64,000 nucleotides of DNA from assembly GCF_947501905.1 (NCBI RefSeq), contig NZ_CANMXL010000004.1, positions 144,777-208,776 of the forward strand, written 5' to 3'. A model generated the notes under the pieces. The model worked only from the letters and a program-made list of their open reading frames with translations. It was not told the origin of the DNA and ran no database searches. The translations under genes and the position numbers were made by a program. Source of the DNA: an uncultured Winogradskyella sp. (GTDB lineage: Bacteria > Bacteroidota > Bacteroidia > Flavobacteriales > Flavobacteriaceae). This document shows positions 35,917 through 42,168 of the stretch, piece by piece; within the stretch, counting starts at the first letter, position 1; each line of letters opens with the position of its first letter.

Positions 35917-37224
35917 ATGAAAAAACTCGCACTACACTGGAAGATTATTATAGGAATGGTTCTTGGAATAGCCTTTGGACTAGGTTTCACGACTTTTGAA
36001 TCTGGCCCTGGAATTATTGGAGATTGGATTAAACCATTTGGAACAATTTTTATTAATTCATTAAAATTAATTGCCATCCCATTAATTCTTGCGGCATTGA
36101 TAAAAGGTATTTCTGATTTAAGAGATATATCTAGTTTATCAAAAATGGGTTTGAGAACAATTGTTACCTATGTGATAACAACAATAATTGCTGTTTCAAT
36201 AGGATTATTAGTGGTGAGTACTATTCAACCTGGTAATTCTATAGAAGAAGATACTAGAAACGAACTAATCGAAGCTTATGGAGGTGATGCCGAAGCAAAA
36301 CGTGTAGCTGCCCAAAATCAAAAAGAAGCTGGACCTTTACAAGCTTTAATTGATTTGGTACCAAGTAATATAGTGAGTGCAGCTTCAAGCAATAGAAATA
36401 TGCTGCAAGTTATTTTCTTTGCTGTATTCTTTGGTATTGCATTGATTCTTATTCCTGAAGAAAAATCAAAAACAGTAAAGAAGTTTTTTGATGGACTTAA
36501 TGAAGTCATACTCAAAATGGTTGATTTAATAATGTTAGCTGCGCCTTATGGTGTTTTTGCTTTAATGGCTGCATTAGTTGTCGAAGCTCCAAGTACTGAC
36601 TTATTTGCGGCTTTGGGTATGTATGCATTATCCGTAGTAATTGGTTTAGCTTTAATGGTTGTTTTCTATATAACACTGGTTAAGCTATTTACAAAAAAAT
36701 CACCGAGTTTTTTTTTAAATGGTATAGCTCCAGCTCAATTATTAGCCTTTTCAACCAGTAGTAGCGCAGCTACATTGCCAGTAACAATGGAACGAGTTAC
36801 GGAACATCTTGGCGTTGAGGAAGAAGTATCAAGTTTTGTGCTACCAATTGGAGCAACAATCAATATGGATGGTACGAGTTTGTATCAAGCTGTTGCTGCT
36901 GTCTTTATTGCCCAAGCATTTGGAATGGATCTTTCATTTGGAACTCAACTTGGTATTATTGCTACAGCGACTTTGGCTTCCATTGGTTCAGCAGCAGTTC
37001 CAGGTGCAGGAATGGTTATGCTAGTAGGTGTGTTAGGTTATGCAGGAATCCCTGAAGCTGGATTGGCATTGATATTTGCTGTCGATAGACCCTTAGATAT
37101 GTGTAGAACTGTTATTAACGTAACTGGCGATGCCACTGTATCAATGCTGGTAGCTAATTCTCAGGATAAACTTCATGACCCAAAACCCAAAGAATGGGAT
37201 GACCATTATGAAGCTGTAAAATAA
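35917..37224 (+). CDS. dicarboxylate/amino acid:cation symporter (DAACS, GltP-like)
   Basis: It has SSSAATLP and NMDGT motifs and multiple TM helices. Confidence 0.85.
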   Translation: MKKLALHWKIIIGMVLGIAFGLGFTTFESGPGIIGDWIKPFGTIFINSLKLIAIPLILAALIKGISDLRDISSLSKMGLRTIVTYVITTIIAVSIGLLVVSTIQPGNSIEEDTRNELIEAYGGDAEAKRVAAQNQKEAGPLQALIDLVPSNIVSAASSNRNMLQVIFFAVFFGIALILIPEEKSKTVKKFFDGLNEVILKMVDLIMLAAPYGVFALMAALVVEAPSTDLFAALGMYALSVVIGLALMVVFYITLVKLFTKKSPSFFLNGIAPAQLLAFSTSSSAATLPVTMERVTEHLGVEEEVSSFVLPIGATINMDGTSLYQAVAAVFIAQAFGMDLSFGTQLGIIATATLASIGSAAVPGAGMVMLVGVLGYAGIPEAGLALIFAVDRPLDMCRTVINVTGDATVSMLVANSQDKLHDPKPKEWDDHYEAVK

Positions 37225-37283: not shown

Positions 37284-38321
37284 ATGAATGTTTGTTTCAT
37301 TATGTATCCATGGGAAAACATTGACCCAGAAAATGATACAAGTTTAGCTTTAATAAAAGAATGTGTTAAAAGAGGGCATGGTGTAGCCATGTGTACGCCT
37401 GCAAATTTGACGATACGTGATAGTGTGACTAATGCCTTTTGTAACGTCATTAGCCGTATGGACAAAGTACCATCAACGCTAAAGGCATTTTATAAAAAGG
37501 CGACTCTAAGAGAAGAAATGCTACCGCTAGCAGGCTTTGACGCTATTTTCTTTAGAGCAAATCCGCCTTTAGATCCATTAATGCTTAATTTTTTAGACTC
37601 TGTAAAAGATGATGTGTTTATCGTAAATTCTTTACAAGGTATGCGAGAAGCTAATAACAAACTCTATACTGCTGCTTTCGGTGATGCACATAGTAATATT
37701 ATACCTAACACACATGTCTCAAAAAACAAGAACTACTTAATTCAACAAATTAAGGAGTCCAAATCGGACAAGATGATACTTAAACCTTTAAATGGTTTCG
37801 GTGGTTCTGGTGTTATTCTTATAGAGAAATCTGCCATGAGTAATATTAATTCATTGCTCGATTTTTATATCAGTGCTGGAGAAGGCGAATCAAATTATGT
37901 CATTCTTCAAGATTATATAGAAGGTGCTGATAAAGGAGATGTTAGAATTTTAATGCTTAATGGCGAAGCAGTTGGTGCTATGAAACGTGTTCCTGGAGAT
38001 GATGACCATCGCTCTAACGTTTCTGCCGGTGGTTCTGTGCAAAAGCATACTTTAACCAAAGAAGAGAAAGCATTATGCAGGCAAATTGGACCAAAACTTG
38101 TAAAAGATGGCTTATATTTTGTTGGTATTGATGTTATAGGCGGAAAACTTGTTGAAGTAAATGTCATGTCTCCTGGAGGAATAACTTATATCAATAAAGT
38201 ATATAAGAACAAGCGTAAGGTTGAAGAAAAAGTTATTGACTTCTTAGAGAGTAAAGTGCTTGATAATCTTGAGGCGTTTAATAGAAGAACTCGCCTACGT
38301 AAAACAGTTGAAGACGCATAA
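37284..38321 (+). CDS. GshB-like ATP-grasp ligase (annotated-type 'glutathione synthase'; true substrate unknown)
   Basis: It is collinear with E. coli GshB: D.S.A...E...RG, R..PP.D, N..Q..R..NEK, ILKPL.G.GG, D.R.L...GE, R.N...GG and FVG.D.IG..L.E.NV.SP. Confidence 0.75.
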   Translation: MNVCFIMYPWENIDPENDTSLALIKECVKRGHGVAMCTPANLTIRDSVTNAFCNVISRMDKVPSTLKAFYKKATLREEMLPLAGFDAIFFRANPPLDPLMLNFLDSVKDDVFIVNSLQGMREANNKLYTAAFGDAHSNIIPNTHVSKNKNYLIQQIKESKSDKMILKPLNGFGGSGVILIEKSAMSNINSLLDFYISAGEGESNYVILQDYIEGADKGDVRILMLNGEAVGAMKRVPGDDDHRSNVSAGGSVQKHTLTKEEKALCRQIGPKLVKDGLYFVGIDVIGGKLVEVNVMSPGGITYINKVYKNKRKVEEKVIDFLESKVLDNLEAFNRRTRLRKTVEDA

Positions 38322-38332
38322 ATATTAACATA

Positions 38333-39487
38333 ATGCTTCAAATTGAATCGCCATTAGTTTCTGTAAATTGGCTTCATAAACATATTGAGGCTGAAAACTT
38401 AGTTGTCTTAGATGCTACTATCCCCAAAGTTGCTATTAATGAATTAGTATTCGATTCGGGTTACATTCCAAAATCACAATTTTTTGATATCAAAAATAAG
38501 TTTAGTGATGTTTCTGGTCAGTTTCCAAATTCGTTGCCAAGTTCTAAACAGTTTCAAATTGAAGCTCAAAAACTTGGTATTAGCAATAACAGTGCTATAG
38601 TAGTTTACGATTTACATGGTATCTATTCAAGTGCAAGAGCTTGGTGGCTATTTAAATACTTTGGACATAATAATGTAACGGTTTTAGATGGTGGTTTACC
38701 AGAGTGGAAGAAAAATGATTATGAAACAGTTAGTGGTTGTGAAGTTCCAAAATCTCTTGGGAATTTCATAGCAAAACCTAAAGAATCATTAATTACAGAT
38801 TTTAAAGGTGTAAAGTCATTTTCAAACTCTGAAAAAGCATTAATTTTTGATGCACGTTCTCAAAAACGCTTTTCTGGAGAAATACCAGAACCTAGAGAAG
38901 GATTGCGAAGTGGGACAATTCCAAATTCAGTAAATTTACCATATACTGAGTTACTTTATATGGGTAAGTTAAAATCTAAAGAGCAATTAAAACAGCTTTT
39001 TGAAGATTTAATTAATGAGCAAAAAACCTATGTTTTTAGTTGTGGCACAGGAATTACAGCTTGCAATTTAGCACTCGGAGCAACAATAGCAGGCTATGAA
39101 GATTTAATTGTTTATGATGGCTCATGGACAGAATACGGAACATTAACTCATAATAATATGGAGGCACCAAATTGGACAAAAGATGAGTTTATGGCATATA
39201 TATTATTATATGCTGCACATTCAGATTTTAAAGAAGATAATCATGAACGTAATGTTATCATCTCAAAAGTAGATATGCATACTTTTCAGAAAATTCATGA
39301 TGAATTTTCAAACGATAATGATTACCAATGCATTCAAAAAATACTGGCTTCTGTTGAAAAGCACAATTATTCTTCTGAGAATATGGATCAAATATTAGCC
39401 GATATTAAAGGGCTATTTTTCGCAGATGGCGACTTTGATATTAAAGAACATTCCATGCTTTTATTCTTAAAGCGTATTTTAAAATAG
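38333..39487 (+). CDS. tandem-rhodanese sulfurtransferase (SseA/3-mercaptopyruvate type) with an extra C-terminal domain of about 110 aa
   Basis: It contains two rhodanese repeats. The active-site loop is SCGTGITAC, with the Cys codon at 39041-39043. From about residue 275 onward the sequence is helical and non-rhodanese. Confidence 0.75.
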   Translation: MLQIESPLVSVNWLHKHIEAENLVVLDATIPKVAINELVFDSGYIPKSQFFDIKNKFSDVSGQFPNSLPSSKQFQIEAQKLGISNNSAIVVYDLHGIYSSARAWWLFKYFGHNNVTVLDGGLPEWKKNDYETVSGCEVPKSLGNFIAKPKESLITDFKGVKSFSNSEKALIFDARSQKRFSGEIPEPREGLRSGTIPNSVNLPYTELLYMGKLKSKEQLKQLFEDLINEQKTYVFSCGTGITACNLALGATIAGYEDLIVYDGSWTEYGTLTHNNMEAPNWTKDEFMAYILLYAAHSDFKEDNHERNVIISKVDMHTFQKIHDEFSNDNDYQCIQKILASVEKHNYSSENMDQILADIKGLFFADGDFDIKEHSMLLFLKRILK

Positions 39488-39493
39488 AATTAT

Positions 39494-40324
39494 ATGCTCA
39501 AACTTCCTGTTTCAAAAATTATAGAAAACATTAATTCTGAAACCTGTTTTTATGCCGTGTCAGATGATTATTCTTTCACTATAAAAATTGACGAATATGT
39601 CCCATATGCTTGCGGTGCAGTACATGATGGGCATCAATTCAGAAAAGAGCTTTGGGATAATTGTTTGCATACAGAATATGATCGTTGGTATGAAGAAGAC
39701 CCTGAAACTAAGAATATGATTGTATCTCATCCTATAGTTATTGCTGGATGCGATTCGCGTTTTGAATACGATTTAAATAGAGCACCAGACGAAGCTGTTT
39801 TTGTTACTGCTTGGGGAAAACAACTATGGAAAACGCCATTGCCAGAAGCGCAAAAAGAGAGAAGTCAAGAAAAGCATGCAAATTTTTACAGAGTAGTAGA
39901 GGCTTTGATATCTAAATTAGAAGACAAGTTTGGCGTATGTATTGTCTATGATATGCACAGTTATAATTGGCAACGTTGGGATAGAGAAGTACCAACTTGG
40001 AATTTAGGAACTTCAAATGTTGATAATAAGCGCTTTGGAGGTTCTATAGAATCATGGCGCGCTATTTTAGAATCTATTGATTTGCCTAAAGACATTAAGC
40101 AAACCGCAAAGATTAATGATACTTTTCAAGGTAATGGGTATTTCTTAAAATTTATTACCAATAACTTTAAAAATACCTTAGTTTTGGCAACTGAAATTGC
40201 TAAAGTGTATTGCGATGAGTATAATCAGGTTATTTACCCTGAAGTAGTTGCCGCAGTAGAAAATCAGCTTAGAGATTTACTACCAAAACATGCAGCAGAT
40301 TTTTACAAAACGTTTTCTAGTTAA
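39494..40324 (+). CDS. N-formylglutamate amidohydrolase (FGase)-family hydrolase
   Basis: The AVHDGH, SRFEYDLNR and DMHSY motifs match the FGase-family pattern (H.G., SR...D.NR, .HS.). Confidence 0.65.
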   Translation: MLKLPVSKIIENINSETCFYAVSDDYSFTIKIDEYVPYACGAVHDGHQFRKELWDNCLHTEYDRWYEEDPETKNMIVSHPIVIAGCDSRFEYDLNRAPDEAVFVTAWGKQLWKTPLPEAQKERSQEKHANFYRVVEALISKLEDKFGVCIVYDMHSYNWQRWDREVPTWNLGTSNVDNKRFGGSIESWRAILESIDLPKDIKQTAKINDTFQGNGYFLKFITNNFKNTLVLATEIAKVYCDEYNQVIYPEVVAAVENQLRDLLPKHAADFYKTFSS

Positions 40325-41481
40325 TGCCAAGTATAAAGACTACACAAGAGTTTCAAGAGGTTTTTGATATCGATTCTAATCTTAACAGGTTAGTAAAAAA
40401 CATTGAACTTCTTAACTATATAAATCCATTAAATATTTCTGCAGAAAAAAAGAAATTCTTTTCAGCTAAGTATAATTACGAACCAGAATTTAAGTATCCA
40501 AAGATTAAATTTAATGGTTATAAACTCCATCGTTTGTTTTTTTCTCAGCGTCTGGAGCGCATAGAAGATGACGATATTCGTCAATTATATGAAGATATTA
40601 TTTATGAATATTCTGGACTTATAGAATGTATAGAAACAATTGGAAAAGGGAAAAAATTCTACTATAACAGCTTAAAAAGTTTTGGAACTCCTACAGAACG
40701 TGATATTGAGAATGCAAAATTTATTTTGCGTTTTGATGATGTAGATGAAGAAGATTTAGAACCAATACATGATGTGTTATATGCTAAGGACTATTTTGAA
40801 AACTATTCAAAACGTTATGGTTTTAAGTATAACCTAAAGATTAGCAATAATATTTCTGCAGCTGCTATGGTACTTAATAATACACAGACCCTAGTATTGC
40901 GTAAAAATCATAAATACAGCAATAATCAATTAAAAGTACTAGCAAATCACGAAATTGGTGTGCACTTGGTAACAACTTTTAACGGTTTGTCTCAACCACT
41001 TAAGGTGTTTTCTAATGGATTTCCAAATAATGTCGAAACACAAGAAGGTTTAGCTGTTTACTCAGAATATATGAGTGGTTCCTTAACCATGTATCGATTA
41101 CGAGAATTAGCATTTAGAGTTATCGCAGTTGACAGTTTGAGTAAAGGTTATAGCTTTTCAGATACCTTTAATTTATTAAACGGGCAATATAAACTTGAAC
41201 GTCATAAAGCATTTAGTATCACACAACGTGTGCATCGTGGTGGTGGTTTTACAAAAGATTTTTTGTATTTAACTGGTTTAAGAAATGTCTATCAATATGC
41301 GAAACAGAATAAAGATTTAGGAAAACTGTTAATGGGTAAAGTCTGTAAGTCATATTTGCCAACTATTGATAAACTTACTGATTTAGGACTAGCAATACCT
41401 CCAAAGTATTATACAGATGCTTACGAGAATAATAGCAATACCAATTCTAAATTGGATTTTATTTTAGATGGTTTAAAGTAA
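40324..41481 (+). CDS. DUF1704 / QEGLA-motif putative metallocarboxypeptidase ('flavohemoglobin expression-modulating QEGLA motif protein' family)
   Basis: It has the HEIGVH (HExxxH) motif at 40948-40965 and an exact QEGLA motif at 41041-41055. The start overlaps the upstream stop (TAATG). Confidence 0.75.
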   Translation: MPSIKTTQEFQEVFDIDSNLNRLVKNIELLNYINPLNISAEKKKFFSAKYNYEPEFKYPKIKFNGYKLHRLFFSQRLERIEDDDIRQLYEDIIYEYSGLIECIETIGKGKKFYYNSLKSFGTPTERDIENAKFILRFDDVDEEDLEPIHDVLYAKDYFENYSKRYGFKYNLKISNNISAAAMVLNNTQTLVLRKNHKYSNNQLKVLANHEIGVHLVTTFNGLSQPLKVFSNGFPNNVETQEGLAVYSEYMSGSLTMYRLRELAFRVIAVDSLSKGYSFSDTFNLLNGQYKLERHKAFSITQRVHRGGGFTKDFLYLTGLRNVYQYAKQNKDLGKLLMGKVCKSYLPTIDKLTDLGLAIPPKYYTDAYENNSNTNSKLDFILDGLK

Positions 41482-41482
41482 A

Positions 41483-41621
41483 AGCCTCAAAGCTAGATTT
41501 TTCAGTCTATCATCTTCAAAATGAAACTTATAATAGGGTAGACTTGCCATATTTTAAGAACCTGATTCGTTCCCAACTAACAGAAGCTAGGCTCAAGTTA
41601 ACATAATCTAGCTTTGAGGCT
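41483..41621. repeat. perfect 16-bp inverted repeat with 107-nt spacer
   Basis: AGCCTCAAAGCTAGAT (41483-41498) and ATCTAGCTTTGAGGCT (41606-41621) are exact reverse complements. The left arm begins 2 nt after the DUF1704 stop. Confidence 0.8.
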
Positions 41622-41745: not shown

Positions 41746-42168
41746 TTAATCTAAGAATTTTGCCTTCAATTCTGGTGTTGGAATCATACAAGCATCTCTT
41801 TTTCCATACCATTTGTATCTGTTTTTGGCAATAAAATCGTAAAACCAATTTCTTATAAAAGCAGGAATAATAAAGAATACTGCCATTATGTTTGTTGGGA
41901 AGTTGAGAGACTTACCCACATGCAATGCAGCTGCAGATTTGCTATAAATTTTATATGTTTCAGGATTAAAAAGTAAGATAGAATCTATCTCTGTAGTATC
42001 TATATTAAACTCATTAATTATAGTTTCTCCTATTTTACTTTGCAATGGCGCAAATAGAAATTTATTTTTCTTATCTCGCTTTATAACATACAAGACACTA
42101 CTATTACAAAGGTTGCATACACCATCGAAAAGTATTAATCGCTTGTCTTTTGGAATGTTATTAATCAT
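41746..42168 (-). CDS. DCC-family thiol-disulfide oxidoreductase (DUF393)
   Basis: It has the FDGVCNLCN motif near the N-terminus. Confidence 0.8.
   Translation of the reverse strand: MINNIPKDKRLILFDGVCNLCNSSVLYVIKRDKKNKFLFAPLQSKIGETIINEFNIDTTEIDSILLFNPETYKIYSKSAAALHVGKSLNFPTNIMAVFFIIPAFIRNWFYDFIAKNRYKWYGKRDACMIPTPELKAKFLD

Follow-up and report, generated by a model that had tools for sequence, protein, structure and literature searches.

A GshB-paralogue ligase linked to FGase-fold and MATCAP-family hydrolases: a widespread operon family viewed from a Winogradskyella locus

We analysed a stretch of 64,000 nucleotides (nt) from the genome of an uncultured Winogradskyella sp. (assembly GCF_947501905.1, contig NZ_CANMXL010000004.1, positions 144,777 to 208,776; hereafter the window). 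Within it lies a compact cluster of four genes (37284-41481) for an ATP-grasp ligase related to the glutathione synthetase GshB, a rhodanese, a hydrolase with the N-formylglutamate amidohydrolase (FGase) fold and a gluzincin of the MATCAP/DUF1704 family, which we call g1, g2, g3 and g4, respectively. The conserved unit is the trio g1, g3 and g4, not the four genes, and the arrangement is far from chance because the trio turns up in different phyla, with varying gene order and with some of its genes fused. The cluster in the window is an ordinary, vertically conserved copy of this widespread operon family, with a rhodanese::TerB-like insertion as a local variant. We tentatively interpret the trio as a ligase/carboxypeptidase module that may set the level of a small glutamate-containing peptide, a proposal that we favour but rate at somewhat less than an even chance.

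Five open reading frames (ORFs) follow one another on the forward strand, beginning with a symporter gene. The ligase gene g1 (37284-38321, 345 residues) starts 59 nt after the symporter, g2 (38333-39487, 384 residues) follows after 11 nt, and g3 (39494-40324, 276 residues) after a further 6 nt. The start codon of g4 (40324-41481, 385 residues) overlaps the stop codon of g3 by 1 nt (TAA at 40322-40324 and ATG at 40324-40326, read as TAATG). A first-pass annotation, made from the sequence alone, had described these ORFs, gaps and overlap, the symporter and the motifs given below, and the ORF listing and translations show it to have been exact in each respect. The g4 protein is 97% identical to that of W. 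haliclonae, a species with the same gene arrangement; an exact-sequence look-up with g4 matched no record. The G+C content is even throughout the region at about 0.31-0.36. Inspection of the N-termini by eye revealed no obvious signal peptide in g1-g4, and the PADLOC models for defence systems gave no match to these four proteins.

The ligase g1 carries the Pfam domains GSH-S_N (2e-24) and GSH-S_ATP (7e-55), and its best model is NF009110/PRK12458, on which it scores 460.7 bits against a cut-off of 408. It falls below the cut-off of the canonical GshB model TIGR01380 (232.6 vs 299.05 bits) and narrowly exceeds that of NF003573, a lenient canonical model (282 vs 272 bits). Escherichia coli GshB scores 464 bits on TIGR01380 and 496 bits on NF003573, and with 222 bits it stays below the 408 required by NF009110. 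Six trio-linked ligases from other lineages, two of which share merely 30-37% identity with g1, all exceed the NF009110 cut-off (435-463 bits), and together with g1 they all fall short on TIGR01380 (191-241 bits). Given these reciprocal scores, we regard NF009110 as the ligase family of the trio, sister to GshB and not GshB itself, and g1 is, as judged by family profiles, probably distinct from canonical glutathione synthetase. On the RimK family model g1 reaches 97 bits, under the cut-off of 143. Public records name NF009110 members glutathione synthase, a label that is probably incorrect or falls short of their function. Literature searches, which did not extend to the amidoligase survey of Iyer et al. 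2009, brought up no biochemical work on the subfamily.

The alignment of g1 with E. coli GshB (1gsa) spans residues 5-304 (E=3e-38), and g1 keeps K125, K160, the GxGG loop, R210, R225, R233, E281 and N283 (1gsa numbering). The catalytic and ATP-Mg residues of GshB and its lid loop are invariant across the g1 family. The protein is about 30 residues longer than E. coli GshB, at the C-terminus. Among the core proteins, g1 is also conserved best, with a median identity of 82% in Flavobacteriaceae and 59% in the metagenome loci described below.

The product of g4 matches PF08014 at 4e-99 (332 bits vs a cut-off of 27). On the QEGLA model TIGR02421, which was built from proteobacterial members, it remains below the cut-off (319.6 vs 338.65 bits). 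Its metallopeptidase motif, HEIGVH, lies at residues 209-214 and is followed by QEGLA with E241; among 25 diverse homologues E241 never varies, and conservation reaches at least 90% at H209, E210 and H214. A profile of these 25 homologues finds human MATCAP (7z5g) at 6.6e-19, with HExxxH and EGLA aligned. The profile match identifies g4 as a true MATCAP homologue, for which metallocarboxypeptidase activity is predicted.

The second hydrolase, g3, matches PF05013 (FGase) at 1.6e-13, with 51.8 bits against a cut-off of 28.9, and it lies far below the cut-off of the HutG equivalog TIGR02017 (19.1 vs 278.75 bits). A search of the PDB with the single g3 sequence returned nothing significant, and the fold was assigned from an AlphaFold2 model (predicted local distance difference test score, pLDDT, 97.4), for which Foldseek placed the FGases 2q7s and 2odf best (TM-score about 0.7) and M14 carboxypeptidases next. 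No Pfam domains of the hutU/H/I type occur in the 20-kb surroundings of the W. haliclonae orthologue. g3 is homologous to the N-terminal domain of fusion proteins of about 660 residues, with phmmer E-values down to 1e-102. Together these profile and structure comparisons confirm all four family assignments of the first-pass annotation.

The Flavobacteriaceae set comprised 81 loci from about 30 genera, the genome scan being confined to the best 80 loci ranked by similarity, all of which fell in this family; with L082-L086 the set makes up a mapped set of 86 loci. Cluster representatives and a metagenome scan gave access to other phyla. The genes g1, g3 and g4 occur in that order in 69 of the 77 Flavobacteriaceae loci with enough upstream sequence, and in most genera of the family the g1 and g3 ORFs overlap by 4 nt. 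For 44 mapped loci, namely L083 and 43 from Flavobacteriaceae, nothing was detected in the g1-g3 slot. The slot is filled in a subclade that includes Winogradskyella, Hanstruepera, Formosa, Xanthomarina, Algibacter, Lacinutrix, Flaviramulus and relatives, where it holds a rhodanese with a TerB-like protein (10 loci), a rhodanese alone (11), a TerB-like protein alone (4) or a hypothetical protein with a TerB-like one (2).

Outside this family, the two hydrolases usually form a single protein of about 660 residues. A full-library search with g4 gave 2206 cluster representatives, most of them 600-690 residues long with the MATCAP domain at the C-terminus. The best 150 representatives were studied further, and 97 of them are at least 580 residues in length. 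An N-terminal FGase domain of the g3 type is present in 35 of these 97 (phmmer, confirmed by Pfam), and the N-terminal domain of the other 62 escapes recognition by Pfam. By hhalign (probability 98.7%, E=3.5e-16) the latter is an FGase domain in degenerate form, without the conserved His/Asp blocks. This degenerate class, of about 600-660 residues, includes P0299, P0305, P0317 and about 60 more, as well as the protein encoded at 4178-6052 of L084.

Gene order varies among the distant loci. In L083, another Bacteroidota genome, the ligase is followed by an FGase-MATCAP fusion, and in a Vibrionaceae-like contig (L088) the ligase is followed by two such fusions in tandem. FGase, MATCAP and ligase succeed one another in L087 with 4-nt overlaps. 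In L084 and L085 the gene for a degenerate-FGase MATCAP protein is flanked by intact stand-alone FGase and NF009110 ligase genes, and L086 has MATCAP on its own. L089 has a ligase disrupted by an insertion sequence, an FGase-MATCAP fusion, RimK and an AstE/AspA-family gene. The fusions and the gene coupling indicate that the FGase-like domain and the MATCAP domain operate jointly, in partnership with an NF009110 ligase.

A metagenome scan anchored on the L088 fusion yielded 80 loci with G+C contents of 29-63%. An NF009110-type ligase is present in 75 of them; in 71 its gene immediately precedes the fusion gene in the same orientation, and in 58 it overlaps the fusion ORF; three of the loci without a ligase have the anchor at the contig edge, with no upstream room. 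Median identities to the g3 and g4 proteins of the window are 41% and 38%. The functional linkage of ligase, FGase and DUF1704 genes is stronger than the first-pass annotation had guessed, since FGase and MATCAP form one fused polypeptide in most other lineages and the ligase ORF overlaps it. Nor is the trio confined to Bacteroidota. As a side observation, genes for a LysR (HdfR-like) regulator and for DUF413 (MaoP/YifE-like) accompany 21 and 20 of the 80 metagenome loci, respectively, in Gammaproteobacteria-like contexts.

The product of g2 is composite. Its N-terminal part (38333-39157) is a tandem rhodanese with two Pfam Rhodanese stretches (8e-28), the second containing the intact catalytic loop CGTGITA (within SCGTGITAC); on NF008557, the model for 3-mercaptopyruvate sulfurtransferase, it scores 202.4 bits, below the cut-off of 250. 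The last 108 or so residues (39158-39487) have no Pfam match. Detected homologues of this tail number 128, and the best 120 are nearly all stand-alone proteins of 105-113 residues, some of them named TerB or DjlA_N in UniRef; in W. luteola the domain is a separate ORF of 111 residues. An AlphaFold2 model of the tail is a six-helix bundle (pLDDT 87) whose best PDB match is the TerB-like PG1108 (2h5n; TMq 0.63-0.65, probability 0.99, E=0.35). Since the tail is a separate protein in nearly all relatives, g2 in the window and in W. haliclonae is a fusion of the rhodanese with this putatively TerB-like domain. The earlier description of g2 as a rhodanese with an intact loop thus stands, although the protein is no plain rhodanese.

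The rhodanese is a lineage-specific, interchangeable accessory, inserted within a Winogradskyella subclade, as the first-pass annotation had allowed; it is found in 21 of the 81 Flavobacteriaceae loci and in none of the 80 metagenome loci, and the TerB-like domain is likewise found in none of the latter. In W. luteola (L007, 5988-6818) and W. aquimaris (L008) a hypothetical protein of 276 residues with an N-terminal hydrophobic segment sits in the place of the rhodanese, and so the slot between g1 and g3 appears to be a hotspot of gene replacement. The suggestion that a sulfurtransferase is embedded in the core is not borne out, and persulfide or thiocarboxylate chemistry cannot be intrinsic to the system because the rhodanese is absent from most loci. 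Of the earlier interpretation, the ligase/hydrolase system survives and the central role for sulfur chemistry does not.

Published expression data bear on the trio as well. In an RNA-seq study of Photobacterium damselae at 1% versus 3% NaCl (PMC10308900), RS17020, a 'glutathione synthase' gene of 1029 nt on chromosome II, was induced 38-fold at 1% NaCl, RS17025, a 'QEGLA motif protein' gene of 1983 nt, was induced 27.5-fold, and a DUF413 gene upstream of RS17020 was induced 9-fold. A second gshB, of 948 nt on chromosome I, was 1.6-fold down under the same condition (PMC10308900). RS17025 overlaps RS17020 by 17 nt, and its length fits a fusion. The authors take RS17020 for GshB (PMC10308900); the evidence here suggests that it is an NF009110-type paralogue and not GshB. 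The expectation that g1 is something other than an ordinary GshB is supported by its scores on NF009110 and TIGR01380 and by the separate gshB of P. damselae.

Other literature frames the component families. A genome survey did not find gshA-B pairs in Bacteroidetes and reports that the flavobacterium Polaribacter makes N-methyl-bacillithiol (PMC6282198). MATCAP/TMCP enzymes remove C-terminal residues of acidic tails and deglutamylate (PMC10499314); the MATCAP papers are silent on bacterial homologues. The ATP-grasp ligase RimK shares an operon with RimB, the peptidase that counters it, and hybrids of ligase and peptidase occur as well (PMC11957791). The NCBI product name ties the QEGLA family to the expression of flavohemoglobin (nitric oxide stress) and probably derives from PA3697. 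This Pseudomonas aeruginosa gene is one that we take to encode a QEGLA-family member. The regulation of fhp by PA3697 is cited in PMC8070244.

We suspect that g1, g3 and g4 form one cytoplasmic module that would build and trim a small glutamate-containing peptide. The scheme starts from observed family memberships, linkage, fusions and co-induction, and from these we infer the reaction directions, a small-molecule substrate and its identity. Enzymes of the GshB type extend a small peptide by an amino acid after phosphorylating its C-terminal carboxylate. In the same manner, g1 could act on a small acidic peptide, probably of gamma-glutamyl type, turning its C-terminal carboxylate into an acyl phosphate at the expense of ATP and attaching one amino acid there, and g4, as a gluzincin carboxypeptidase, would take off the C-terminal residue. 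FGase-fold and M14-like enzymes cut N-acyl-amino-acid bonds beside a free alpha-carboxylate, and HutG, an FGase relative, releases glutamate. g3 may be a carboxypeptidase-like amidase that cleaves the leftover N-acyl-amino acid or dipeptide, and it would form a single physical unit with g4. In this scenario, g1 would catalyse X-Y + Z + ATP -> X-Y-Z, g4 would catalyse X-Y-Z -> X-Y + Z, and g3 would catalyse X-Y -> X + Y. The module would set the steady-state level of the peptide, probably as part of an osmotic or other stress response.

Given that g1 keeps a complete GSH-S_N domain and an invariant lid loop, the evidence leans towards a small molecule rather than a protein as its substrate. The SDF symporter, the RimK and AstE/AspA genes of L089 and the induction at low salt suggest a link to glutamate or osmotic homeostasis. 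In L089 (5054-6921), RimK (with a Rimk_N domain) and the AstE/AspA-family deacylase lie directly 3' of the fusion, and the GshB-like ligase gene is interrupted by a transposase; RimK could replace the interrupted ligase functionally. In L088 a 103-residue ORF overlaps the start of the ligase gene; we rejected its product as a candidate substrate protein because of its signal peptide and its lack of conservation. The cluster contains no conserved candidate substrate gene, and its neighbours differ between phyla.

Several points weigh against the peptide module. If a synthetase is expressed alongside enzymes that hydrolyse what it makes, the outcome is a futile cycle unless regulation intervenes, and the hydrolases might instead make the ligase substrate from a larger precursor, in remodelling or salvage. 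Eight Flavobacteriaceae loci have the symporter directly followed by g4, with g1 and g3 absent at the site, which shows that a local ligase is not required for g4 to work, or at any rate to be retained. In these loci (L043, L044, L048, L055, L061, L066, L070 and L073) g4 is intact; they come from some Flagellimonas, Arenibacter, Cellulophaga and Sediminicola, and other Flagellimonas species keep the full trio. Moreover, 79 positions that are invariant in the g1 family differ from E. coli GshB. Finally, the literature found on QEGLA/DUF1704/TIGR02421 amounts to one RNA-seq paper and a regulatory phenotype attributed to PA3697.

A different use of the same chemistry would be a cycle of protein C-terminal tagging, in which a specific protein is extended by g1 by one or several residues that g4, together with g3, takes off again, as a bacterial counterpart or ancestor of the tubulin cycle or of RimK/RimB. 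TTL, the ligase that opposes the detyrosinases, is an ATP-grasp enzyme with a GshB-like fold, which counts for such a cycle, as do the homology of g4 to MATCAP with its catalytic motifs aligned and the translational coupling of ligase and peptidase genes. RimK/RimB shows that bacterial cycles of this type exist (PMC11957791). However, g1 retains the whole N-domain and the lid loop that in GshB itself close around a small substrate, and its RimK score is well under the cut-off. The FGase fold is known for substrates of N-acyl-amino-acid size, and the cluster has no conserved candidate substrate gene, with neighbours varying by phylum. We consider protein tagging unlikely. A bolder version, in which the GshB paralogue and FGase-MATCAP run a C-terminal amino-acid cycle on a protein or signalling peptide for rapid osmotic or redox adaptation, as a prokaryotic forerunner of tubulin tyrosination/detyrosination, or else make a new glutathione-like thiol peptide in Bacteroidota, strikes us as a comparably doubtful proposal.

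It is also conceivable, and in our judgement equally improbable, that g1 is a genuine synthetase of glutathione or an analogue, that g3 and g4 make or recycle gamma-Glu-Cys-type peptides (from imported glutathione, phytochelatins or conjugates) and that the rhodanese handles the released sulfur. The narrow pass on NF003573 and the full set of GshB catalytic residues are consistent with this, as are the rhodanese of 3-mercaptopyruvate sulfurtransferase type recruited in 21 loci, the convergent DCC1-like gene downstream and the pointer to nitric oxide stress in the NCBI QEGLA name. Against it, g1 misses the TIGR01380 cut-off as E. coli GshB misses that of NF009110, P. damselae retains a separate, oppositely regulated canonical gshB, and most clusters have no rhodanese; the spacing of DCC1 and mutS2 is variable, as is typical of inherited synteny. 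The survey result for gshA-B in Bacteroidetes and the production of N-methyl-bacillithiol by Polaribacter argue in the same direction (PMC6282198). The database names 'glutathione synthase' and 'N-formylglutamate amidohydrolase' would imply unrelated housekeeping roles, with the genes being mere neighbours from glutathione synthesis, histidine catabolism and a housekeeping peptidase. Yet the linkage outlasts changes of gene order, fusion and phylum, g3 scores 19 bits on the HutG equivalog (cut-off 279) with no hut genes nearby, and in Photobacterium the ligase and QEGLA genes rise together. An accident of synteny is effectively refuted by the fusions and by co-occurrence, and we give it almost no weight. 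What confidence these four readings do not take up is left to schemes outside them.

Further genes and elements surround the cluster in the window. The SDF/DAACS symporter gene (35917-37224, forward strand, 435 residues; Pfam SDF PF00375, 1e-124) has GltP and DctA as its best NCBIfam matches, both far under their cut-offs. A same-strand symporter gene precedes the cluster in 67 of the 86 mapped loci, every one of these 67 in Flavobacteriaceae, and in 1 of the 80 metagenome loci. The symporter noted in the first-pass annotation is thus a Flavobacteriaceae-specific neighbour outside the conserved core, its linkage does not extend further, and it may reflect inherited synteny. Downstream, a gene for a DCC1-like thiol-disulfide oxidoreductase (41746-42168, reverse strand) is convergent to the cluster. 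In Flavobacteriaceae loci this gene and mutS2 adjoin one another 3' of the cluster, also convergent, and the distance from the DCC1-like gene to g4 ranges from 7 nt to several kb; because distances vary, both look like inherited synteny rather than operon members.

Between g4 and the DCC1-like gene, directly 3' of the g4 stop codon, an inverted repeat (41483-41621, forward strand) has perfect 17-bp arms, AGCCTCAAAGCTAGATT and its complement, around about 105 nt, and occurs once in the window. Its predicted fold has a z-score of -4.3. In W. haliclonae the stem is kept, although two disruptions accompany one compensatory change (G-C to A-T). The repeat could act as a long terminator, as an attenuator or as a structured or small element. 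Rfam gave no match to a structured RNA anywhere in the window, and a promoter/terminator scan, which does not cover Bacteroidota promoters, found fewer sigma-70-like sites than in shuffled sequences.

The interest lies in the operon family and not in the copy found in the window. The family is widespread and biochemically uncharacterised, and its parts already bear names in public records that are probably misleading. Its study could reveal an ancestral role of MATCAP and the function of a second 'GshB', and the trio allows the role of MATCAP-type enzymes before tubulin to be probed. The minimal set, one ligase and one two-domain hydrolase, is tightly linked and easily expressed, and in the marine pathogen P. 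damselae the ligase-hydrolase pair is among the genes most strongly induced by low salinity. For annotation, glutathione synthesis should not be read into a GshB-like gene when that gene lies next to, or overlaps, one for an FGase/MATCAP protein.

Compared with known systems, g1 resembles GshB (1gsa) in its GSH-S_N and ATP-grasp architecture, which is collinear over about 300 residues, and presumably in acyl-phosphate chemistry at a peptide C-terminal carboxylate. It differs in belonging to a separate subfamily, as the reciprocal failure of the equivalog cut-offs indicates, in being always coupled to two hydrolases while coexisting with a canonical gshB in Photobacterium, and in occurring in a phylum without detected gshA-B pairs (PMC6282198). 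Like TTL and MATCAP/TMCP, the trio pairs an ATP-grasp ligase with a MATCAP-family gluzincin carboxypeptidase, and HExxxH and (Q/E)EGLA align between MATCAP and g4. Unlike them, it is encoded as one operon, its ligase is GshB-like rather than TTL-like, and no tubulin is involved. Eukaryotic MATCAP is not known to carry an FGase-fold domain, and by length comparison its microtubule-binding extensions appear to be absent from the bacterial proteins.

RimK and RimB (RimABK) carry out the polyglutamylation of ribosomal protein S6 and its removal. As in the trio, an ATP-grasp glutamate ligase is co-encoded with an opposing peptidase (PMC11957791), but RimB is a retropepsin whereas the hydrolases of the trio are zinc enzymes, and the affinity of g1 is much more with GshB than with RimK (460 bits for NF009110, 97 bits for the RimK family model). 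HutG (2q7s, 2odf) shares with g3 a fold of the zinc-carboxypeptidase-like superfamily and presumably the hydrolysis of N-acyl-amino-acid amides; g3, unlike HutG, is fused or translationally coupled to MATCAP and is not a HutG equivalog. In glutathionylspermidine synthetase/amidase (Gss) and in cyanophycin synthetase and cyanophycinase (CphA/CphB), an ATP-grasp synthetase and a hydrolase of its own product are co-encoded or fused, so that turnover of the peptide, be it metabolite or store, is regulated. Their hydrolases come from families unrelated to g3 and g4 (a CHAP amidase and a serine peptidase of family S51), and their substrates are known. As in such turnover or tagging systems, the ligase and hydrolase described here are co-encoded (71 of the 80 metagenome loci) and co-regulated (in P. 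damselae).

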